Positions 1,300-44,212 of a stretch of 44,263 nucleotides of DNA are shown one piece after another (within the stretch, counting starts at the first letter, position 1; every line of letters begins with the position of its first letter). The stretch comes from a phage. The DNA is taken from the NCBI GenBank assembly GCA_029038705.1, contig GCA_029038705.1_4346.1; one strand, given 5' to 3'. Position numbers and translations under genes: made by a program. The notes under the pieces were generated by a model, which made no database searches, was not told the DNA's origin, and saw nothing but the letters and a program-made list of their open reading frames with translations.

Positions 1300-1303
1300 G
1301 ATG

Positions 1304-1340
1304 AATCCTCCAGGTGCATATTAAGTATGCACCTGGAGGA
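1304..1340 (-). promoter_or_regulatory. 15 bp perfect-stem hairpin covering the holin Shine-Dalgarno
   Basis: TCCTCCAGGTGCATA-TTAAG-TATGCACCTGGAGGA. On the minus-strand mRNA the 3' arm contains GGAGGA, 6 nt before the TTG start at 1299. Confidence 0.55.
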
Positions 1341-1371
1341 TACCACGGGTAGGAATTATCCTAATAGCGGT

Positions 1372-1665
1372 TTATTTATGTCTCCAGATGTATTGTCGTC
1401 TCTGTGGTTTCGTCGGGATATCATCGTATCCCAGCGATTTCCAGTAATTAAATAACCGATTAGAGATTGCAGCGCGTTCCTGTGTTTTAAACTCACCGAG
1501 GTTTACGGCCTTCCCGTTCTGGAATCCACAGGCGCGGACAGCTTTACGCCGCTCTTGTATCTCAGGGAACAGTGCGTTACGGCGACGCTTGTGTATACGT
1601 GTCTTCGCTCTCGGTGACAGCGGCGCAAGGCCGCTTCGTTTCAGGATGTCAGTTGCTAACGACAT
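1372..1665 (-). CDS. Hypothetical basic protein
   Basis: Track ORF 1372..1710; likely start is the internal ATG at 1665, which overlaps the upstream stop (TGATG). Arg/Lys-rich. Confidence 0.45.
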   Translation of the reverse strand: MSLATDILKRSGLAPLSPRAKTRIHKRRRNALFPEIQERRKAVRACGFQNGKAVNLGEFKTQERAAISNRLFNYWKSLGYDDIPTKPQRRQYIWRHK

Positions 1666-1934
1666 CACTCCACCCCCTCCACATGTGTAACTGACCCACA
1701 GTTCGCGCACTCGACGTAATCAGGGAACTGGTCTTTGTATTTCTGTAACTCGGCTTCCGCTTTTTCTGCCCACGCTAAAAAGTCGAAAGCGGCATTGAGC
1801 ATCTGCGTACGCCATGTCCTGAGTTCATTGAACTTACGCTCAAGTTCCGCGTAGTCTTCGTAACCAACCCAGTCACCATCGTCGTGCGGCCCTATTAAAC
1901 CGCCTTGTAATAAATATCTCTGTACCATAATCAC
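1665..1934 (-). CDS. Hypothetical protein
   Basis: 89 aa ORF with C-terminal CANCGS motif; start overlaps the upstream stop. Confidence 0.5.
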   Translation of the reverse strand: MIMVQRYLLQGGLIGPHDDGDWVGYEDYAELERKFNELRTWRTQMLNAAFDFLAWAEKAEAELQKYKDQFPDYVECANCGSVTHVEGVE

Positions 1935-2134
1935 TTCTCCTGTTTACCAAGTCGCTTAGGTGAGCAGATAGCGCGTACCTCTGAATCGTTAGGCTTGTCG
2001 CCCTGAAACAAGAAGTGCGCGTTCTCTGCGGCGCGTGCCGCTGACTGGCACGCCTCCATAGAATAAAACGTTTCTGTTGCCGCCAGGTGCATCTGACCCG
2101 CAGATAACACCCAGATAAAGAGGATGCTGGTCAT
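1931..2134 (-). CDS. Hypothetical small protein with N-terminal hydrophobic (signal-like) segment
   Basis: 67 aa; MTSILFIWVLSAGQMHLAA at the N-terminus. Confidence 0.45.
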   Translation of the reverse strand: MTSILFIWVLSAGQMHLAATETFYSMEACQSAARAAENAHFLFQGDKPNDSEVRAICSPKRLGKQEK

Positions 2135-2212
2135 TTGTAGCGAACCTCTGGTTCAGCGTAGCCATTGTCTTTCCGGGCCGGGGTGAACCCAAACCGGCTC
2201 CGGAACCATATT

Positions 2213-2398
2213 TCAAACTGCTGCAAAGTGAGTCTCACTTCCTGGTAACTTGAAGCCGTTGTCGGTCCGCGCCACGTTCCACTCAATCCCACCGTGGTAC
2301 ACAACCATGTCATCTAAATCCAGGTCTATAACGGTTCCTACTTTGAAGATGCCTTTAGTCAGTTCACTGTCTCTTTTTGTAACTTTAACTTCTAACAT
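2213..2398 (-). CDS. Hypothetical protein
   Basis: 61 aa ORF directly downstream of promoter 2431-2459; GAGGAAAACG precedes the ATG. Confidence 0.5.
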   Translation of the reverse strand: MLEVKVTKRDSELTKGIFKVGTVIDLDLDDMVVYHGGIEWNVARTDNGFKLPGSETHFAAV

Positions 2399-2430
2399 TT
2401 CGTTTTCCTCTGTCTCGTCTGTGTAAATGA

Positions 2431-2459
2431 ATAGTAGCCTATTCTATCTTAGTGTGCAA
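2431..2459 (-). promoter_or_regulatory. Sigma70-like promoter (TTGCAC-N17-TACTAT) carrying the AATAG-N4-CTATT element
   Basis: On the minus strand: TTGCAC, 17 nt, TACTAT. Plus strand carries GAATAGTAGCCTATTC. Confidence 0.55.
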
Positions 2460-2466
2460 GTAAATT

Positions 2467-2637
2467 TTATTGGTGTTTTAAAGATAATCGTTCGCCACGA
2501 ATCCAGTAGTACCTCGGGCGTCTGGCCCACTGGCACCAGCGCATAACACGGTACTTGTTGCCGTCTGACGCAACAATAAGCCCGAATCGCTTTTCTCCGT
2601 TTCTACCGGTCCAGGTTACGATGTCATTCAGTTTCAT
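2467..2637 (-). CDS. Hypothetical small protein
   Basis: 56 aa ORF (MKLNDIVTWTGRNGEKRF...), below the 60 aa track cutoff; fills an otherwise empty gap. Confidence 0.3.
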   Translation of the reverse strand: MKLNDIVTWTGRNGEKRFGLIVASDGNKYRVMRWCQWARRPRYYWIRGERLSLKHQ

Positions 2638-2771
2638 TGTTGCGTCTCCTGCAATAGTCGCTTCGATTGTTGCGTTTGGTGAAAGTGTCGCCTTTTGACG
2701 ACACTAAGTTAAAGTTGTACGCTGCTGTGTAGCAGCGTAAGTCACTCAGTAAAATCCCAAACTATTGAACA

Positions 2772-2972
2772 TCACACTTCCGGCGGTTCAGGTAACGGCA
2801 TCCAGTGAGTCACGTACTTATCGTAGTGATTCCAGAAAGGCTTTCTCCCGTCATCAGGAACGATGTAATAATCGTGTTGAACTGCGTTATTTAACGTTTC
2901 ATACACCAGGAATTCTTTATCTGTACTACCGTTGCCCGGCAGCATCTCACTACACTTAATCCACTCACCCAT
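2772..2972 (-). CDS. Hypothetical protein
   Basis: 66 aa ORF in the early minus-strand operon. Confidence 0.5.
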   Translation of the reverse strand: MGEWIKCSEMLPGNGSTDKEFLVYETLNNAVQHDYYIVPDDGRKPFWNHYDKYVTHWMPLPEPPEV

Positions 2973-2975
2973 ATC

Positions 2976-3119
2976 TCACCTCGTATTCATCGCAGTTTGA
3001 ACACCAGCTTTCCACGCCCGCCACGCGAGACGTGTCTTAACGTTCAGGTACTCTTTCTTTGAACCCTTGTTAACCGGCAGACCCTCGACGATGGCCCACC
3101 GTTCGAATGCTTCTCTCAT
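2976..3119 (-). CDS. Hypothetical small protein
   Basis: 47 aa ORF (MREAFERWAIVEGLPVNKG...); its ATG overlaps the upstream stop (ATGA). Confidence 0.3.
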   Translation of the reverse strand: MREAFERWAIVEGLPVNKGSKKEYLNVKTRLAWRAWKAGVQTAMNTR

Positions 3120-3322
3120 AACTCAACCCCGTGGTGCTTAAGAAAACTGTTTAACTTGTACTCACGGTACTGTGCTACCTCCTTAGCATGAGCCAAATGC
3201 CACGACTTCAACGGGGTGTACTTCGCCTTTTCCCAGCATTCAACACCAAACTCGGCGGCGCGCAGACCGCCAATCAGACGGCGTAAGCGGAATTCGTTAT
3301 ACGGACTCATACCAACCTCCAC
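3116..3322 (-). CDS. Hypothetical protein
   Basis: 68 aa ORF. Confidence 0.5.
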   Translation of the reverse strand: MEVGMSPYNEFRLRRLIGGLRAAEFGVECWEKAKYTPLKSWHLAHAKEVAQYREYKLNSFLKHHGVEL

Positions 3323-3364
3323 AACGCGTGCACCACATAAACGGCGCTGATGATTAAAACAAAC

Positions 3365-3586
3365 TTATTCACGGCAACCTCCCTCAGAGTCGTCGGCACG
3401 AGCATCATGATTCGATGCCGGTTCGAGTAAAGTGACCACACCACTTTCCTTCGTCAGAAGGATGTAAACCGTCCGCAAATGTGCGTACTGTTTTAGCCAG
3501 GGACCGATTTCGGATTTACTGTTGAATTCTTTACTGGCTATGGTTTGTTTTGTCTCTTTCGATTTAATCTCTAGCTTAATCATCAC
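3365..3586 (-). CDS. Hypothetical protein
   Basis: 73 aa ORF. Confidence 0.5.
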   Translation of the reverse strand: MMIKLEIKSKETKQTIASKEFNSKSEIGPWLKQYAHLRTVYILLTKESGVVTLLEPASNHDARADDSEGGCRE

Positions 3587-3777
3587 TTCGCCCCTTTGAA
3601 TTTAAAATTGTTGCCGATGAGTGTTAAATTATCTCTGAAAGCGTAACCATGTTTCTTTCGTACAAGACCCCATACGTCTACAGCGGTACTATATTCATCC
3701 TCATTCTGGGTAACTATTACGTACTGTCCGCCGCGTTTTGTTTTAACCAACTGACCCTTCTTAAACATAACCATCAC
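3583..3777 (-). CDS. Hypothetical protein
   Basis: 64 aa ORF; start overlaps the upstream stop. Confidence 0.5.
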   Translation of the reverse strand: MMVMFKKGQLVKTKRGGQYVIVTQNEDEYSTAVDVWGLVRKKHGYAFRDNLTLIGNNFKFKGAK

Positions 3778-3786
3778 TCCTCTGTC

Positions 3787-4005
3787 TTATTTAAAGTAGA
3801 TAGCAAATTTCTTGTAACCCGCTGGCTCGTTACGAAGTCCTTTACCGTTAGCGAAACGTTGTACGTTAACAAAATCATTTTCATCCATTCCGTCGGTGTC
3901 GAACGTAAAGAAGTTGCGCTTGTTCCCGATAATTACGCGCTCTGAGATATCGATGCCGTAAACTTCTTTGATTGCGGAAACTACGCTTGCGGTCGCTTTG
4001 TTCAT
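3787..4005 (-). CDS. Hypothetical protein (first gene of the leftward early operon)
   Basis: 72 aa ORF immediately downstream of promoter 4040-4068. Confidence 0.5.
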   Translation of the reverse strand: MNKATASVVSAIKEVYGIDISERVIIGNKRNFFTFDTDGMDENDFVNVQRFANGKGLRNEPAGYKKFAIYFK

Positions 4006-4039
4006 TTCTAAATTCCTTATGTCTCGTTTCGATAAGTGA

Positions 4040-4068
4040 ATAGTAACCTATTATGTTGGGGTGTGCAA
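4040..4068 (-). promoter_or_regulatory. Sigma70-like promoter (TTGCAC-N17-TACTAT) carrying the AATAG-N4-CTATT element
   Basis: Minus strand: TTGCAC, 17 nt, TACTAT. Plus strand reads GTGAATAGTAACCTATTATG. Confidence 0.55.
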
Positions 4069-4426
4069 GAGAATAGTTACGTTGCCGTTGTGATTCTTCG
4101 GGGAGGGTTGTGCCTTTATTCTTATTACTTGGTAACTAAAGGGCAGGCTTAAGCCTGCCCAATAATCGTTACATTTTTACGGTTGCGAATCTACGGCACA
4201 TTAAGAAACAGTATATATTTCAGCGGGTTACTTCTTTAAATGAGATTTAGATACACTTATCCTTAAACCCCAAGGCAAGCATCTCAGCTGTCTGGGAGGG
4301 GTTGACGAATCCCTCGGGGAGGGTTCGTCAACTCCGTAATATATACAAGTCCCAAAACCATTATACAAACATGTGTCAAGAACTTTCAATAACATTTTTG
4401 TAAAGATTAAATATTACAGAGATTGG

Positions 4427-4455
4427 TTGCTTTTACATTCCCGCTATCCTATACT
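4427..4455 (+). promoter_or_regulatory. Sigma70-like promoter for the rightward operon
   Basis: TTGCTT, 17 nt, TATACT, about 30 nt upstream of the ATG at 4487. Confidence 0.45.
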
Positions 4456-4486
4456 CAGTTTCACCAAACAAACAGGAGATATAAAA

Positions 4487-4669
4487 ATGTCGCATTATAT
4501 GACGCAGAATGAAGTAGCTGAACGTATCGGGGTGACACGTCAGACAATTAATAACTGGTTGCGCAGCGGCAAATTCCCTGACTGCTGTATTAAGGTTATG
4601 GGCCGCCGTTTACCGGGAACATTTGACCGTAATAAAGTCGAAGCATGGATTAAGGAGAACGTGAAATGA
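4487..4669 (+). CDS. Small HTH DNA-binding protein (AlpA/MerR-excisionase-like fold)
   Basis: MSHYMTQNEVAERIGVTRQTINNWLRSGKFP is a helix-turn-helix signature. AGGAGA sits 7 nt upstream; the track's longer ORF from 4373 has no RBS. Confidence 0.6.
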   Translation: MSHYMTQNEVAERIGVTRQTINNWLRSGKFPDCCIKVMGRRLPGTFDRNKVEAWIKENVK

Positions 4670-4956
4670 AAGGCGTAATTTTCCACAATAAAGCAGAAAA
4701 CGAAGTGTATATGGTTCACTCCGTGGCAGGAGAGTTCGCTTTATGCTTCAATATCTCTTGCCATCTTGATACCTACCGGCCTTTCTGCGTAGAAACAGAA
4801 ATGAAGCTAATTAGCTTACGCCAACTAAGCACCATGTCGGCATCGCTTAACGTAAGAGATAATCTCGAGTATATCGACTTCTATTTCGGCGATGATTTGG
4901 TCGAGGAATATTTTGAAGAGTATAAAAATTTGCTGGAAGGGTTGGCTAAACGGTAA
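4666..4956 (+). CDS. Hypothetical protein
   Basis: 96 aa ORF; ATGA overlap with the upstream gene. Confidence 0.5.
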   Translation: MKGVIFHNKAENEVYMVHSVAGEFALCFNISCHLDTYRPFCVETEMKLISLRQLSTMSASLNVRDNLEYIDFYFGDDLVEEYFEEYKNLLEGLAKR

Positions 4957-5154: not shown

Positions 5155-7373
5155 ATATTGTTTTTGCAACGCTGCGTAACACATTCGATAAAAACCCTGT
5201 AGCGCGTGAAATGCCGCTGGAGCAGTTTGTCGAGTATGTCTGCGATACATCGAAGCGTTTATCCGTGGACCCGTCATGGACTAAGGAAGAGTACGACGCT
5301 GCCAAGATTAAACAGAAAGCTATTGCGCCTGTTGGTGGTCGCCGTAAAAACGCTATCCTGGAAGACAGTGTGGTTAAGTTCGATTTCGACCATCTCAACC
5401 GTACTCAGTACCGCGACCTGACACGCAAATTCAAGAACGCGCCGTTCTTCAATATTCTGCACACAACGGCATCGCATCAGCACGCATGTAAAAACGGAGA
5501 TTACGCTTTCCGCGTTCTGGTTCCAGCTCGCACGCCGTTTAACTCTAACGACGCGTGGATGGTGCAACGTGCTATTTGTGCAGAGTTAGAAATAGACGAA
5601 GCGTTGCGCGACCACTGCACAGAAGACGGCAACCGCCTTATCTACCTGCCGCATAAAGAGTCGAAGATAACGGTTACAGAAGGGCGTGTTATCCGTGCTG
5701 AGCGGTACATCAAGAAAGCCGAAGAGATGGGGTTGCGTAAGCGTGAGGCTAAAACACTTGCCGCTGATGAGCATGGGCTTAACGCGGATATAGCACACTT
5801 CTGCGAAGCCGAGCTTGGCCTTGACGCTTTATCTTCCGGGCGCGGGTACGAAGTGCCATGCCCTAACGAACATCTGCATACAGGCAAGGGCTCCACCAGC
5901 ATAATGCTCGACGGTAAAGAAGTGCGCTTTGTCTGCCAGCATACAAACAACGGCGCTTGCACCGAGCTTAACCGTAGGCAGCATTTGGCCCTGCGTATGT
6001 GTGGCCTACCCGACGAGCTTAACATAGATAAGCAACCTATCAGCATTAACAGCATTCGTGCGGCTCTGCCTGATTTACCGGAAGAAGAGATTGAAGAACT
6101 ACACCGCACAGAGAACGAGGACCCAGTAACTTGCAGCCTCGACGACCTGGAAGACGACGAGGACTCAGAGGAGGACGAGTTACCGGAGCCGGTAAAGGCT
6201 GATTTCGTCGTTGAGGGGTACATGCCGTCGGATTGTATCTGGGATATCGTCGGGGAATCTGGCACGTACAAATCGTTCTATACGCTGGGGATGATGTACC
6301 TCAGCGCCGCCGGGTACAGGTTTGCGGGGGCGGATACCCAGCGTTGCCACCATTTCTATATTGATGGTGAGGGTGGCGCAGCTACACGCACCCGTATTGA
6401 TGCACTAGCGGCTAAATATGGCGGGGAAGGTAAAGATTATGTACACGTCATCGATATGGGCGAAGTCGGCAAACTTAAAAGCCTGATTAAGTTAATGCGC
6501 GAAACTGCTGGCGACGAGCCAATTGGCATGGTTGCGTTCGACACCCTTAACCAGACCCTGGCACTGACGATTGATAAGTTCGACGAGAACAGTTCATCAA
6601 CAGCAATCGGCATGGGTAAAGTTATCGCCATTCTGAAAGAAGTACGCGATGCAACTAAAGCCGCAGTAGGCGTTGTCCACCATACGCCGAAGGGTGGAAA
6701 GAAAGCACGCGGCAGTGGGGCGCTGTATGCGGGTGTTGACGTGGAACTGACAATCGAACGTGCAACCGACCGTCAGATAAACGTATATCACTCGAAATTC
6801 AAGCACGGGCCTCAGCAGAAGACGGTTGGCATGGTGCTGGAGTCGGTACAGTTCCGTGAAGCGCCGCCGCCTAAAGAATACCGAGCGGTTGAGTTCCTGG
6901 GTAGCACAGAGGAATACGGCACAATCGTAAACCTGGACCTGCCTGAACCACACAAGGCGCTTGTGTTGATGCCGTGGGGTTTCGAGCCGTTCAAAACTGA
7001 CGAGGAGAAAGAGCGGGAAGAAGGGTTGACGAAAGAAGGTAAGCAAAAAGTAAAGGAAGAAGTTAAACGCGGCAGGGATGAAGTAAGGAAGGAGTCAATA
7101 CTTTCGGCACTGGAAGACCTGCAACAGTCAGATGACACAGGTCGCGGTTTTACTCAGCAGCAGATAGTGGCTCGTTCCGGTGACTTCTCTGTGACTAACA
7201 CCCATCTTGATAAAATGTTGAAAGATGGAGAACTAATGCTTGGTTGCGATGCTAACGGCGAAGTAGTACCGAGAACATATCGTATACCCGAAAGAATAGG
7301 TGATAGATTAAGGCCGAAGACACTATACGAACCAAATGAGATGCTGGTGGTGACAGAGGAGGATTTGGAATAG
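5151..7373 (+). CDS. Replicative primase-helicase-like protein (N-terminal primase-like region, Cys/His cluster, C-terminal RecA/DnaB-type P-loop ATPase)
   Basis: 740 aa. Walker A-like GESGTYKS, Walker B-like VAFDTL, Cys/His cluster CPNEHLHTG...CQHTNNGAC, and a C-terminal acidic/basic tail. Domain assignment is by eye. Confidence 0.65.
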   Translation: MNIVFATLRNTFDKNPVAREMPLEQFVEYVCDTSKRLSVDPSWTKEEYDAAKIKQKAIAPVGGRRKNAILEDSVVKFDFDHLNRTQYRDLTRKFKNAPFFNILHTTASHQHACKNGDYAFRVLVPARTPFNSNDAWMVQRAICAELEIDEALRDHCTEDGNRLIYLPHKESKITVTEGRVIRAERYIKKAEEMGLRKREAKTLAADEHGLNADIAHFCEAELGLDALSSGRGYEVPCPNEHLHTGKGSTSIMLDGKEVRFVCQHTNNGACTELNRRQHLALRMCGLPDELNIDKQPISINSIRAALPDLPEEEIEELHRTENEDPVTCSLDDLEDDEDSEEDELPEPVKADFVVEGYMPSDCIWDIVGESGTYKSFYTLGMMYLSAAGYRFAGADTQRCHHFYIDGEGGAATRTRIDALAAKYGGEGKDYVHVIDMGEVGKLKSLIKLMRETAGDEPIGMVAFDTLNQTLALTIDKFDENSSSTAIGMGKVIAILKEVRDATKAAVGVVHHTPKGGKKARGSGALYAGVDVELTIERATDRQINVYHSKFKHGPQQKTVGMVLESVQFREAPPPKEYRAVEFLGSTEEYGTIVNLDLPEPHKALVLMPWGFEPFKTDEEKEREEGLTKEGKQKVKEEVKRGRDEVRKESILSALEDLQQSDDTGRGFTQQQIVARSGDFSVTNTHLDKMLKDGELMLGCDANGEVVPRTYRIPERIGDRLRPKTLYEPNEMLVVTEEDLE

Positions 7374-37544: not shown

Positions 37545-37647
37545 AAAAATAATATCTCAGGGAATTTTTTCTTATTGCGGTGCGATGTCTTGCTGTGGTA
37601 CATGTATATACACAATCTTTATACTAGAAGAAGCGGAGGGTATTTTA

Positions 37648-38997
37648 ATGGGGTCCAGACGTTTAACTGAAGAAGATGTAAACCTGAGACTGGCGTCACG
37701 GGGTATAGTAGTAATTGAGTATGCAGGCCACTCTAAACTTAAGTCTAAATTCCGCTGCCGTAGTGGCCATGTGTGGGAGACAAAGGCCAATACCGTCCTA
37801 AACGGTCATGGTTGCCCCCAATGCTACGCTGCGGAAAAACGGGCGAAAGTAACAGAGTGGCCTAATGGGGTTGAATGCCTTAATTACGCAGGTGCTGTAA
37901 GTGGGAAATCAACGTTCAGATGTAAATGCGGGTTCGTCTGGTCCGCTACCGGCAGCGACATTTTAAGGGGTAAAAGTCATTGCCCGAATTGCAGCACTAA
38001 CAGAAAAAGGCTCGAGATCGGAGAAATAGAGGAAAGGTTACGCGGCACTGGTTTTGAACTGGTGTCTTATTCAGGGGATATCTGCCGTGCGCCATCGACA
38101 CTGAGGTGTCAAAAAGGCCATGAATGGGCCTCTACGCTTGGTAACATTTTTCAGGGTAGAGGGTGCCCGCGGTGCGCGTCGTTCGGGCGTAGTAAAGTGG
38201 AGGATGAAGTCTGTGAATTTCTCGATAGCATGGGGGTGGAATATCATCGGAATGATAGAAGTCTTATCCACCCAAGAGAGATAGATATTTTAATACCGCA
38301 ACATAATCTGGCGATAGAAATAAACGGCCTGTACTGGCACAGTGAAGCTGCCGGGAAGGGGAGAAAGTATCACATGGAGAAAAGAGTCGCCGTTGAGGAA
38401 AGAGGGTTCAGGCTCCTGTCAATAAGGGATGAGCTATGGCTGCATAAAAAAGAAATAATAAAGAAAATAATCGGCCATTCCGTCGGCGTCTCTTCTTTGC
38501 GAGTTTTCGCCCGCAAATGCCATGTAAAAGAGATTAACAAAATATGTGCAGAGCGTTTCCTGGAGGAGAACCACATTCAAGGATTCCGTAACTCGACGAG
38601 GTATATCAGCCTCGTTTATGAAGAAAAGATTGTTGCGGTAATGACGCTGACGTGTAGAAAAGGTGAATGGGAGCTTGTGCGGTACGCTACGTCGTGTTCG
38701 GTGGTAGGCGGGCTGTCGAAGCTATGGGCCTATGCCGTGCGCCGTTATAGCATCACCGACGGTTTTACCTACACTGACCGGGATTTATTTACCGGAGAAT
38801 CATACCTATCAGCGGGGTTTAAAAAGGCTTCTGTGAGATGTGGATTCCGCATCGTCGTAAACAATGCGACTAAAACAGAATCACGGCAAAAATGGAACAA
38901 AGCGCCAGAGGGGCTTACACAGTCGGAATGGTACGCTGCGGAAGGTGTATCCCGCATATGGGATAGCGGACAAGAGAAATTGGTATGGAATAAGTGA
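37648..38997 (+). CDS. Stand-alone nuclease with repeated zinc-ribbon modules and a PD-(D/E)XK-like core (homing-endonuclease-like)
   Basis: Three repeats of a C-x-x-G/C-H...CPxC module (CRSGHVWET..CPQC; CKCGFVWSA..CPNC; CQKGHEWAS..CPRC), then REIDILIP...AIEINGLYWHS. Start is probably the ATG at 37648 (GGAGGG RBS), not 37585. Confidence 0.55.
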   Translation: MGSRRLTEEDVNLRLASRGIVVIEYAGHSKLKSKFRCRSGHVWETKANTVLNGHGCPQCYAAEKRAKVTEWPNGVECLNYAGAVSGKSTFRCKCGFVWSATGSDILRGKSHCPNCSTNRKRLEIGEIEERLRGTGFELVSYSGDICRAPSTLRCQKGHEWASTLGNIFQGRGCPRCASFGRSKVEDEVCEFLDSMGVEYHRNDRSLIHPREIDILIPQHNLAIEINGLYWHSEAAGKGRKYHMEKRVAVEERGFRLLSIRDELWLHKKEIIKKIIGHSVGVSSLRVFARKCHVKEINKICAERFLEENHIQGFRNSTRYISLVYEEKIVAVMTLTCRKGEWELVRYATSCSVVGGLSKLWAYAVRRYSITDGFTYTDRDLFTGESYLSAGFKKASVRCGFRIVVNNATKTESRQKWNKAPEGLTQSEWYAAEGVSRIWDSGQEKLVWNK

Positions 38998-41786: not shown

Positions 41787-42288
41787 CGGACACCACCTTA
41801 ATTGTTACTTCACTGATTGGCTCGTCGCGTACTTCTTCGGCGACAACTGTTTTATTCAGCCCCAGCTTAGCGGCGGCGAACGTAGCAGAGATACCGGCGG
41901 CCCCATTCTCAGTGAAATACGCCTCTTCCAGCGCCTGTGCCGTTTCATAGGCTTCTGCAAATGAGGGAATCTCGCGCAGCCACAGCTTAATAATCGGGAT
42001 AGTGACACCGATGTGTAAGGCGAAGCGAGCCAGTGATGGCGGTTTATCCGCAATGACTGCTTTGTAGTCTCCGTGCGCACCGGTCGGCATAGCCTCCCAC
42101 GACGTGCGGTCGAAGAAACGAATCAATTCGTCACAATAGTCCGGGTCCCACAACGCGGCGGAATTACGGGATGATTGATAAAGGCTCTGTTTACCGCGCG
42201 GTCGTTTACGGCGACGGTTTGCGCTAACAGCTTCTTCATGTGCAGCTTGCACCACCTCTGGTGATGGCTGCTTGAGTTTCAGCTTCAT
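41776..42288 (-). CDS. Terminase small subunit (probable)
   Basis: Position upstream of and overlapping TerL. Start is probably the ATG at 42288 (AAGGGGA RBS) rather than the track's 42327. Confidence 0.5.
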   Translation of the reverse strand: MKLKLKQPSPEVVQAAHEEAVSANRRRKRPRGKQSLYQSSRNSAALWDPDYCDELIRFFDRTSWEAMPTGAHGDYKAVIADKPPSLARFALHIGVTIPIIKLWLREIPSFAEAYETAQALEEAYFTENGAAGISATFAAAKLGLNKTVVAEEVRDEPISEVTIKVVSGER

Positions 42289-42380
42289 AGAATCCCCTTG
42301 CATATGCGTCTGACCATCAGAGCGCACCAGACGCGCCCTACGCGTCTAAATGGATTATATAAGGGGATTGGGCGGGATGT

Positions 42381-42406
42381 ACAGAAAAGCCCTCGGTAGA
42401 GGGCTT
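42381..42406 (-). terminator. Rho-independent terminator upstream of the packaging genes
   Basis: AGCCCTC-GGTAG-GAGGGCT; minus strand is followed by UUUUCUGU. Confidence 0.5.
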
Positions 42407-42507
42407 GTATCAGTTGTATAGGCCGTGGCGTGGTGCTCTTTTACCGTCGCCGCCGTAATGGTCGTTAGCTACGGGAATGGCCCGGGCGTTAGGGATGATT
42501 AGTAGTC

Positions 42508-42768
42508 TCATTCCCCGCTCTCCTCTCGTGCGATACGTTGCTCAGTTTTAGTGATACCCCGGCGCGTGAATAACACCGGGCTTGTTTTAACGTGCGTCAT
42601 CAGACGGTTGTTATAAATTACGTGGCGCTCGCAGTCCACGTCTTTGCTGTACTTCGCAATCGTCATTTCGTTGATGCCGGTTTGTCGGCACGTCTCGGCC
42701 ATCGTGCCAAATTCTTTAATCAGGTTAGGAATGCTGGTAATCATCCTAAGAAATTCCTCGTTGTCCAC
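42508..42768 (-). CDS. Small HTH-containing protein (candidate regulator or DNA-binding packaging accessory)
   Basis: 86 aa; ETCRQTGINEMTIAKYSK is HTH-like. Confidence 0.4.
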   Translation of the reverse strand: MDNEEFLRMITSIPNLIKEFGTMAETCRQTGINEMTIAKYSKDVDCERHVIYNNRLMTHVKTSPVLFTRRGITKTEQRIAREESGE

Positions 42769-42909
42769 ATCGCATTCGGATATTTGTTATCGCGGTCCTG
42801 CACTACAGCAATCATGTTTCCACGTTGCACCAGGCAGAAGTGCCGTTGTTGCTCGCCGTTGTAGCGACGCCAGATTGCCTCTTCGATTGCTGCGTTGATG
42901 TCACTGAAC
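42741..42909 (-). CDS. Hypothetical small protein
   Basis: 56 aa ORF (MFSDINAAIEEAIWRRYNGEQQ...) below the track cutoff; overlaps the downstream gene start by about 28 nt. Confidence 0.25.
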
Positions 42910-42913
42910 ATAT

Positions 42914-43105
42914 CTACCCCACTATTTCATCACCGAGCCACGCCGTCTCTCGTATATCATCGACCACACACGCGGCGTGCTCACGGCTAATTGCAAAAAT
43001 GTAGAAGCTAAACTTCTTCCCGTCGGCGTCGATATGGTTAACAGAGTATGGTTTCCACAGGACGCCATCAATCACTACCGGTTCAGGCGCTTTCATGCCC
43101 ATCAC
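42914..43105 (-). CDS. Hypothetical protein
   Basis: 63 aa ORF. Confidence 0.45.
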   Translation of the reverse strand: MMGMKAPEPVVIDGVLWKPYSVNHIDADGKKFSFYIFAISREHAACVVDDIRETAWLGDEIVG

Positions 43106-43280
43106 CGGATGCTTTGTTCAGGTTGAAGCGGTTAATCAGTTCACGACGTGTCTCGTAAAGTGACTCAACCATTTGCTCGGCTACAGCGATTTTAGTATTC
43201 AGGACGTGCATCACGTGACTGATGTCTACGCCGCCGTTAACAGCCTCCACCATCATCTTTTCATATTCACGGTCAGTCAT
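43083..43280 (-). CDS. Hypothetical protein
   Basis: 65 aa ORF. Confidence 0.45.
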   Translation of the reverse strand: MTDREYEKMMVEAVNGGVDISHVMHVLNTKIAVAEQMVESLYETRRELINRFNLNKASGDGHESA

Positions 43281-43435
43281 TCTTTACGCTCTCCCCACAT
43301 GCGATTTAGATACTTGTTCTTGTCCGGCCCCGGGAAACTGTTACGTTTCATAAGCTCCTCTCGTGTCGGGAACGAGGTGTGACTGACTTTACGGCCTACT
43401 CGTAATGGTTGGCTTACTTGACCTTGTTCGCTCAT
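43277..43435 (-). CDS. Hypothetical small protein
   Basis: 52 aa ORF; ATGA-coupled on both sides. Confidence 0.3.
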   Translation of the reverse strand: MSEQGQVSQPLRVGRKVSHTSFPTREELMKRNSFPGPDKNKYLNRMWGERKE

Positions 43436-43629
43436 TCTACAATCTCCCATTTAACGCCGTGGAAGCCATCACCTTCATCGTTACCAAAGTCTATGAAAAT
43501 ATAGCAGTCGTCGTCGGAGTCTATATAACCGAAACCAGTAGCTGTCGGGTTGTACACATCGTACACTTTACCCTCTGTCACATAGTCAAGGGCGGCTAAC
43601 CAGAGAATTTTAGCGGCTTTAACTTTCAT
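43432..43629 (-). CDS. Hypothetical protein
   Basis: 65 aa ORF. Confidence 0.45.
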   Translation of the reverse strand: MKVKAAKILWLAALDYVTEGKVYDVYNPTATGFGYIDSDDDCYIFIDFGNDEGDGFHGVKWEIVE

Positions 43630-43835
43630 TTCTTCTCTCCTGCAAACTTAAATTTAGCCTCGAACTCCTTTCTACCAACACAATATTCTGAATAGGATTC
43701 ATTGAATTTCATCAATGGGTAGTCGGCGATAAGTACGTGGTCCAACCCAACCGCAGTTACAATGAAACTAACTTCACCTACATCACCCCACGAGTAATTA
43801 CTCTTATAGATGCCACCAACGATAACGTCGATCAT
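43626..43835 (-). CDS. Hypothetical protein
   Basis: 69 aa ORF. Confidence 0.45.
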   Translation of the reverse strand: MIDVIVGGIYKSNYSWGDVGEVSFIVTAVGLDHVLIADYPLMKFNESYSEYCVGRKEFEAKFKFAGEKK

Positions 43836-43981
43836 TTCTTCTCTCCTGCATAAGCTGCTTTCAGTGTCTGCATCGCGGCGAACCAGAATGCAGCCGCTGG
43901 GATGCTGTTGCTCAGGTTGCTAACGGCGATGCGTGCCATCAGTTGTGCGTCTTTGAATGCTTCGATATCTGTAATTTTCAT
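43832..43981 (-). CDS. Hypothetical small protein
   Basis: 49 aa ORF (MKITDIEAFKDAQLMARIAVSNL...); coupled on both sides. Confidence 0.3.
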   Translation of the reverse strand: MKITDIEAFKDAQLMARIAVSNLSNSIPAAAFWFAAMQTLKAAYAGEKK

Positions 43982-44178
43982 TAGTTATTCTCCAGTATTT
44001 CTAACGCTTTCACGAGGTAACGTTTACGTAAAACATCAGTCTGCGCGCTATTAGCCCTGCGTATGTAGCCCGCAGCAGCCCTCATCTGTAGTTTTTCCAC
44101 CGAACCATTCCCTATAACTGATGCGATACATTTAACTTCGAGTTCTTCGGTTATTTCTATCGTCGATACGTTGCCCAT
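43981..44178 (-). CDS. Hypothetical protein (first gene of the leftward small-gene operon)
   Basis: 65 aa ORF with GGAG RBS, downstream of promoter 44213-44241. Confidence 0.45.
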   Translation of the reverse strand: MGNVSTIEITEELEVKCIASVIGNGSVEKLQMRAAAGYIRRANSAQTDVLRKRYLVKALEILENN

Positions 44179-44212
44179 TTCTCTCTACTCCGTTCTCGTT
44201 GTCGATGAAGTA

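Follow-up and report, generated by a model that had tools for sequence, protein, structure and literature searches.

Among the described systems, the nin region of the lambdoid phages (ninB-ninI in lambda, ninA-ninZ in P22) comes closest to the locus described here, being a one-strand run of small, mostly non-essential genes which are joined by ATGA-type overlaps of stop and start codons and are mosaic between relatives. The nin region is dispensable for plaque formation, as is evident from the nin5 deletion, and this mosaic small-gene architecture has long been known from lambdoid phages. Dense, coupled and fast-evolving small genes with a host-type promoter and variable content are, as here, also found in the class I region of T7, in the early clusters of T4 and T5 and in anti-defence islands. 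We analysed a stretch of phage DNA of 44,263 nt (hereafter the window; GenBank assembly GCA_029038705.1, contig GCA_029038705.1_4346.1), which carries an array of ten small minus-strand open reading frames (ORFs), named O1 to O10, between the endolysin gene and the gene for the terminase small subunit (TerS). The array is most probably a self-contained accessory-gene operon of Kagunavirus, and a functional counterpart of the lambdoid nin region (Table 1).

The first-pass annotation of this DNA had reported eight minus-strand ORFs of 49–69 aa ending at position 42741, and all eight are present, with the chain running on from there through O9 (78 aa) and O10 (33 aa). Chaining by ATGA or TAATG, which had been claimed for the whole set, was found at five of the seven internal junctions, with TAATG at O1/O2 and ATGA at O2/O3, O3/O4, O4/O5 and O5/O6, whereas O6 and O7 overlap by 14 nt and O7 and O8 are separated by a 2-nt spacer (TAGatATG); the two added junctions, O8/O9 and O9/O10, are again ATGA overlaps. 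The count of four ORFs below a 60-aa cut-off needs correction to three in the mechanical ORF list (49, 57 and 56 aa). Overlaps of the −4 type make up 5/8 junctions in lambda and 7/11 in P22, compared to 7/9 in the array with the one TAATG counted. Every start codon is preceded at 5–14 nt by a Shine-Dalgarno motif of the GGAG, GAGG or GGGG type. When ORFs of 45 aa or more are counted, the 1769-nt stretch contains six −4 or −1 overlaps, compared to a mean of 0.03 and a maximum of 2 in 1000 dinucleotide-preserving shuffles of that stretch, and the density of such overlaps is 3.4 per kb in the array versus 0.25–0.41 per kb genome-wide, a difference of approximately tenfold. To the fetched genomes we added arrays gathered from IMG/VR by anchoring on the conserved 5′ untranslated region, giving 26 distinct arrays in all. 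Of their 276 junctions, 76% lie in the range from −14 to +2, with 127 being −4 overlaps.

The best megablast match of the region was Escherichia phage vB_EcoS_XY1 (hereafter XY1; Kagunavirus, Guernseyvirinae), with 99.7% identity over the full query, and 380 phage records matched, only ten of which covered at least 80% of the region. Since both window ends close seamlessly against XY1, the window is a complete, circularly permuted Kagunavirus genome, which was opened in intergenic DNA, with the endolysin gene (~750-263, minus strand) on one side and the array on the other. XY1 and 15 further relatives share one gene order on the array strand, which runs from small ORFs through two holins, endolysin, array, TerS and the terminase large subunit (TerL) to portal. 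Gene presence and substitutions were scored against 16 fetched relatives (Kagunavirus and Jerseyvirus), and the intergenic region upstream of the array was aligned for 17 genomes.

The array is predicted to be a separate transcription unit. The promoter that the first-pass annotation had placed upstream of O1 is indeed present (P_B), with 10 of 12 positions matching the consensus, and its spacer varies across the 17 aligned genomes but neither hexamer does. The GenBank record of phage Jersey has a promoter annotated at the equivalent place, and the match of P_B to the consensus is about equal to that of the promoters of the replication module. A second promoter-like sequence further upstream (P_A) shows the same combination of conserved hexamers and variable spacer, and because of this combination both P_A and P_B are probably real promoters. 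The 5′ untranslated region that follows P_B is almost invariant in the 17 genomes, Jerseyvirus included, and its 21-nt core was found in 38 IMG/VR stretches, all but one of which are on contigs of 34–45 kb. An intrinsic terminator (t2), on the other side of the circular junction, immediately precedes P_B. It shows a compensatory stem change from C-G to T-A in Jerseyvirus, and phage Schulenburg has an annotated terminator at the corresponding position; t2 would insulate the array from the lysis genes. At the other end, the array is closed by a second intrinsic terminator (t3), which has a fold energy of −13.4 to −14.3 kcal/mol (z −4.5), shows compensatory stem changes in two relatives (L010 and L015) and was also recovered by a separate terminator scan. 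Directly after t3 comes a promoter-like sequence (P_C) with conserved hexamers and variable spacer in the relatives covering this stretch; it is the sole site of its type in the genome, and its −35 hexamer is non-canonical and poor.

Because a conserved t3 is followed by P_C before TerS is reached, the array is best read as a discrete unit from P_B to t3 and not as a leader of the terminase operon. Thus the placement of the array ahead of the terminase genes, as first annotated, is correct for gene order, with TerS and TerL coming next, but a conserved terminator ends the array and the terminase genes have a promoter of their own. As P_B is near consensus and the −35 of P_C is poor, we infer that the array may be transcribed by unmodified host polymerase, either early or constitutively, whereas the morphogenesis genes would need more than that.

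Table 1. Features of the array and its surroundings. Substitutions were counted by codon position between the window and the 16 fetched relatives, and these counts are not phylogenetically independent.
Feature	Position in window	Strand	Length	Substitutions at codon positions 1/2/3	Remarks
O1	44178-43981	minus	65 aa	7/8/15	
O2	43981-43832	minus	49 aa	24/31/141	
O3	43835-43626	minus	69 aa	11/23/39	
O4	43629-43432	minus	65 aa	20/11/36	
O5	43435-43277	minus	52 aa	41/17/134	57 aa from upstream ATG
O6	43280-43083	minus	65 aa	7/5/51	
O7	43096-42914	minus	60 aa	10/6/136	63 aa from GTG
O8	42911-42741	minus	56 aa	6/3/80	
O9	42744-42508	minus	78 aa	61/36/259	beyond the coordinates first annotated
O10	42511-42410	minus	33 aa	39/24/71	final gene of chain
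P_B, promoter-like	44241-44213	minus			TTGACT, 17-nt spacer, TATATT; proposed array promoter
5′ untranslated region	44179-44212	minus			…CATCGACAACGAGAACGGAGTAGAGAGAA; carries O1 Shine-Dalgarno motif
t3, intrinsic terminator	42406-42380	minus			GCCCTC-TACC-GAGGGC then TTTTCTGT; array end, 3′ of O10
P_C, promoter-like	42383-42354	minus			TGTACA, 18-nt spacer, TATAAT; directly after t3, before TerS start at 42288
t1, terminator	135-105	minus			in some genomes only
P_A, promoter-like	100-72	minus			TTGACA, 17-nt spacer, GATACT; hexamers conserved, spacer variable
CU-rich leader	between P_A and t2	minus	~38 nt		unstructured; from 17-genome alignment
t2, intrinsic terminator	32-1	minus			8-bp stem + U8; directly 5′ of P_B across circular junction
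TerS gene	42288-41776	minus			terminase small subunit; 3′ of array
TerL gene	41786-40515	minus			terminase large subunit; 3′ of TerS

Within this unit, O1, O3, O4, O7 and O8 are each absent from some natural relatives, and the comparison suggests that they are cassettes which have been gained, lost and swapped by recombination at the conserved gene junctions. In the fetched relatives, 83 of 108 ends of homology blocks lie at most 15 nt from a gene boundary (19.8 ± 4.1 expected at random), and the 26 arrays hold 8–15 genes each (median 10), which fall into 46 protein families, including 19 singletons. O1 was found by tblastn in 9/16 relatives, has its own GGAG motif and matched no PHROG or Pfam family. 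The GC content of O1 (0.44), O3 (0.40) and O4 (within the same 0.40–0.44 range) is low compared to 0.50 for the genome. A 19-nt direct repeat, with perfect copies on both sides of O3 (phrog_20019, E 5e-37) at 43626-43644 and 43832-43850, includes the Shine-Dalgarno motif and the ATGA junction, and coincides exactly with breaks of the homology blocks. All fetched genomes with two full copies of the repeat carry O3, and all repeat-holding genomes without O3 have one copy, with two O3-bearing genomes retaining just one full copy. The O7 family was found in close relatives only, on contigs of ~44 kb, while for O8 (phrog_5407) HMMER, run exhaustively on 1.84 billion representatives, gave only six genuine clusters, after matches to two long repeat proteins (P0198 and P0203) had been dropped as translated tandem repeats. 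The description of such genes as often lineage-specific thus suits the restricted O7 and O8 and the patchy O1, O3 and O4, but not O2, O5, O6 and O9, which were detected in 16/16 relatives. Above threshold, O1, O2, O3, O4, O7, O8 and O10 had no match in Pfam or NCBIfam, and NCBIfam gave nothing meaningful for the array ORFs.

A further family of 79–96 aa (family 'a', starting MPKITIASLERRIL…) is located between the NinZ-like gene (O6, see below) and O7 in 13 of 17 genomes, the window counted, and is absent from the window (43280-43083, compared to L002 4205-4492 and equivalents) and from XY1. Some database proteins are fusions across the position of this family, for example P0014 and P0026.

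The remaining genes form a core, with O5, O6 and O9 present in 26/26 arrays and O2 in 23/26. O2 belongs to phrog_2180 (E 2e-25) and has 199 homologues, which among those listed are mostly on contigs of ~40–45 kb, the size range of Guernseyvirinae, where the protein is highly conserved; the O2 family is named 'head protein' in EC3-1, SZH-1 and phiSD1, a name for which we found no support. O5 is a basic protein of the DUF2737 family (Pfam PF10930, 35.7 bits, meeting the gathering score of 25; also phrog_4684), with tblastn homologues in HK97 (gp38), HK022, HK633 and Stx phages, and a search of the literature gave nothing useful on DUF2737. O6 is a helical protein (phrog_1402) with 46% identity to P22 NinZ over 26 aa in BLASTP, and shares with it the C-terminal motif ExRRELxNRxxLNKxxG; a search of PDB sequences with O6 gave no match. 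The short O10 was detected by tblastn in 14/16 relatives, has no family match and is unannotated in some records, and its C-terminal half (NDHYGGDGKRAPRHGLYN) is conserved through synonymous changes in Kagunavirus, Jerseyvirus and also a Proteus phage.

O9 (phrog_268, E 5e-30) resembles the NinH proteins of lambda and P22 as well as Fis, and is predicted to be a DNA-binding helix-turn-helix protein. It matches the Pfam family Phage_NinH (PF06322) with an E-value of 5.4e-5 and 23.5 bits, under the gathering cut-off of 29.8, and has 33% identity to lambda NinH over 51 aa spanning the helix-turn-helix region (BLASTP), being 10 residues longer at the C-terminus. An alignment of five sequences that included these two showed I5, P6, L8, G13, R20, T28, Y32, D35, H41, I43, N45, L48, M49 and H51 to be invariant. 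The segment SRGTVRKY of lambda NinH reads NEMTIAKY in O9, so that two arginines become E and A, with T28 and the K/Y pair kept (roles of residues in DNA contacts of Fis and NinH were taken from PMC7166090). Lambda NinH, a Fis-like mimic of nucleoid-associated proteins, forms a dimer that binds DNA and bends it, and its overexpression is toxic (PMC7166090). Matches of O9 to release factor 1 among PDB sequences (E 0.16) were judged to be due to chance. The conservation of this core argues for a phage-intrinsic function, such as DNA organisation or regulation.

The array thus has families in common with the nin region, namely NinH (O9) and NinZ (O6), together with O5 and its lambdoid homologues. 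However, the nin region is flanked by the replication genes and by Q, and is reached by N-antiterminated transcription from PR, whereas the array lies between endolysin and TerS, with a promoter of its own and a terminator on either side. Homologues of NinB/Orf, NinG/Rap and NinI were absent among the array ORFs in PHROG and Pfam searches, and no Q gene was found after the array or annotated in the relatives. The phage carrying the array is virulent, unlike the lambdoid hosts of nin regions. Because of these differences in position, promoter and terminators, and the absence of NinB, NinG, NinI and Q, we suggest that the array works like a nin region without being one. Among the accessory clusters of virulent phages (T7 class I, T4 and T5 early small ORFs, anti-defence islands), the array is set apart by a conserved core of four or five genes across two genera, and by its location next to late genes.

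In the operon proposed here, host RNA polymerase would start at the σ70-type promoter P_B, just 3′ of the terminator which ends transcription of the lysis genes, and the transcript would span O1–O10 (44178-42410) and stop at t3 (42406-42380), while the terminase and morphogenesis genes would start from P_C, with its weaker −35. Ribosomes may pass from one gene to the next by way of the ATGA and TAATG overlaps found at most junctions, with the Shine-Dalgarno motif of each start located inside the end of the preceding gene. The products would be small binders which modulate DNA (O9) or host proteins (the acidic O4 and O7), and some of them may act in host takeover or counter-defence.

The first-pass annotation had seen host takeover or anti-defence as the typical role of such arrays. 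We found no direct support for this reading, as none of the ORFs matches a defence-related model (PADLOC, nine small ORFs scanned) and the core is conserved, but for the variable cassettes it is plausible and such a role is possible. The comparison of remote homology and predicted structure that had been suggested as a check returned relatives of NinH, NinZ and DUF2737 and inhibitor-like folds for O4 and O7, but no defence model. O4 is acidic (net −8), and is predicted to form a small beta-barrel (AlphaFold2, mean predicted local distance difference test score 94.9), a fold common to many uncharacterised phage proteins of 60–68 aa. Its closest, though tentative, structural match is Gp54 of phage Bas11 (9AXB), a six-stranded beta-barrel of rare topology, with 7% identity and no sequence similarity in a profile search. 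Bas11 Gp54 is a non-essential protein of 66 aa which activates CapRel SJ46, and its authors suspect that it inhibits another defence system (PMC11578894). Comparison of O4 with B. subtilis CspB using hhalign gave a probability of 60% (E 8.8e-5, 39% identity over 46 columns), and a PDB profile search gave E-values of 0.8–2.4 to Csp proteins, with O4 being strongly acidic and lacking a Pfam match.

O7 is an acidic (net −4) alpha/beta protein with a confident AlphaFold2 model, the fold of which is weakly similar to those of Gp2, Dmd and anti-CRISPR (Acr) proteins. Sequence homology to Gp2 was considered and rejected, as hhalign of the O7 family against a Gp2 sequence entered by hand gave a probability of 1.4%, and PDB sequence matches of O7 were chance hits to polycystin (E 0.28 or worse), with no match to Gp2. 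A homologue in fEg-Eco06 with 95% identity is labelled 'RNA polymerase inhibitor, similar to 2LMC_A'; this label rests on a generic, weak fold match, and the sequence profile gives it no support. The same family is named 'host nuclease inhibitor' in EC3-1, and neither name is supported. Both O4 and O7 are like the small inhibitor and trigger proteins T7 Gp2, T4 Dmd, the anti-CRISPRs, phi29 p56 and Bas11 Gp54 in size (55–65 aa), acidity, single compact domain and location in an accessory region, but differ from them in lacking sequence similarity, and the fold similarities are to be taken as leads, not as assignments. It is possible, although we consider it doubtful, that the variable slots form an exchangeable island for counter-defence or host takeover, with O7 and O4 as new families of small inhibitors or immune triggers, and with a different set of genes in each phage, matched to the defences of its hosts.

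Several observations weigh against the reading of the array as a nin-like accessory operon. The array lies between lysis and packaging genes, both of which are late functions, and the unit of promoter, leader and terminator at positions 100-1 (P_A to t2) resembles the late promoter and tR' of P22, so that read-through from it could put the array on a late transcript as well. The sole published time course of a relative (phage K1B4) groups the NinH-like gene with structural genes as 'middle', in a coarse dataset from unsynchronised cultures sampled at 5–120 min with only 57 gene models (PMC12645636). The score of O9 is below the curated cut-off for NinH and two arginines of its recognition helix are replaced by E and A, and the coding evidence is weaker for O1 and O3 (Table 1). 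A strong anti-restriction function is unlikely, because the Kagunavirus isolates of the BASEL collection are reported to be highly sensitive to restriction-modification systems (PMC11990801). The K1B4 transcriptome supplements contain host gene tables only, without per-gene phage timing for the array, and our literature search yielded neither a Jerseyvirus transcriptome of use nor data on gene essentiality in CM001, a Kagunavirus chassis phage.

The main rival explanation is that these genes are part of the late packaging and morphogenesis programme, co-transcribed with the terminase genes by read-through of t2 and t3, and that the core assists packaging, for example through DNA bending by the NinH-like protein where packaging begins, a role that host IHF has at lambda cos. 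The location of the array directly upstream of TerS and on the same strand in every relative examined, the conservation of O2, O5, O6 and O9 across the subfamily, the 'middle' class of the NinH-like gene in K1B4 and the P22-like layout of the unit at 100-1 are all in keeping with such a programme. However, it would have to overcome a conserved t3 and a separate P_C between the array and TerS, it lacks an annotated Q-type antiterminator in a fully annotated relative, and it does not account for half of the genes being naturally dispensable and absent from close relatives, nor for the location of lambda NinH in an early, non-essential region. We therefore consider the packaging programme improbable.

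Far less probable is that most of the ORFs are not translated, and that a leader or regulatory spacer without coding function is open here in several frames by chance. The ORFs are very short, four of them lack any Pfam match, the third-position bias of O1 and O3 is only weak, and O8 is missing from the XY1 record (5353-5523), all of which would fit such a spacer. The substitutions in O2, O5, O6, O7, O8 and O9 are instead strongly concentrated at third codon positions, most clearly so in O7 and O8, as expected for protein-coding sequence under purifying selection, with a weaker signal in O1, O3, O4 and O10 (Table 1). Reading frames and lengths are maintained across the 26 arrays, seven of the nine small ORFs scanned (O1–O9) match PHROG families, the predicted models of O4 and O7 are confident, and each start has its Shine-Dalgarno motif within a chain whose coupling is never reached by shuffled sequence. 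These comparative data already contradict an untranslated region, and indicate that the ORFs are real, translationally coupled genes. Finally, a superinfection-exclusion or lysis-timing module of small membrane proteins that extends the neighbouring lysis cassette deserves hardly any credence, since, for all that the array directly follows the holin and endolysin genes and that arrays of relatives hold small hydrophobic proteins (families b, f, h, k and o), none of the ten window proteins has a membrane-spanning hydrophobic stretch (grand average of hydropathy −1.38 to 0.19) and the spanins are encoded elsewhere in a relative.

As an accessory operon, the array is conceptually an ordinary feature, already sequenced and partly annotated, and what is added here are the operon boundaries, the division into core and cassettes, the kinship with the nin region and, from structure, two weak leads. 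Phages of Kagunavirus and Jerseyvirus serve as engineering chassis and are widely isolated for use in therapy and biocontrol, and an insulated operon of 1.8 kb with exchangeable cassettes is a likely safe site for deletions or the insertion of payloads. The cassettes O1, O3, O4, O7 and O8 would be the first candidates in screens for inhibitors of host functions or triggers of bacterial immunity. Public annotations of the region are in conflict at L001 (XY1) 5353-5523, where O8 is omitted, at L002 4485-4670, and at L003 3785-3934 and 4487-4669.

Two further stretches next to the array contain conserved signals. Conservation of the unit at 100-1 extends over the 17 genomes and includes one compensatory change in the stem. 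Its layout would suit an independent small RNA of ~65 nt, or else a late promoter with its terminator, as in P-late and tR' of P22. Its leader contains AUCACCUCCU, a decamer which is kept exactly in most Kagunavirus genomes only, and which we take to be identical to the anti-Shine-Dalgarno 3′ end of 16S rRNA. A k-mer search for complementarity between this unit and the phage genome gave 11 non-self 9-mers, compared to 10.5 expected from shuffled seeds, and Rfam gave no match at or above a gathering score in the whole window. On the other side of the array, the minus-strand stretch 42288-42410 contains t3 and P_C and, 3′ of these, a 5′ untranslated region in which two hairpins (AGACGCGTAGGGCGCGTCT and GCGC..CAGAC..GCGC) are conserved, and is a candidate control point for the expression of late or packaging genes.

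Elsewhere in the window, a second run of small, partly overlapping minus-strand ORFs is located at ~1300-4720, upstream of the holin genes, and represents the other concentration of coupled junctions on this strand. An ORF of 470 aa at 37585-38997 is on the plus strand, opposite to the flanking portal and head-morphogenesis genes, and combines a DUF4379 treble-clef zinc finger with a Vsr/restriction-endonuclease-like domain and a PADLOC match to 'homing endonuclease'. As XY1 has a gap of only ~70 bp at this site, the ORF looks like a mobile homing-endonuclease insertion.

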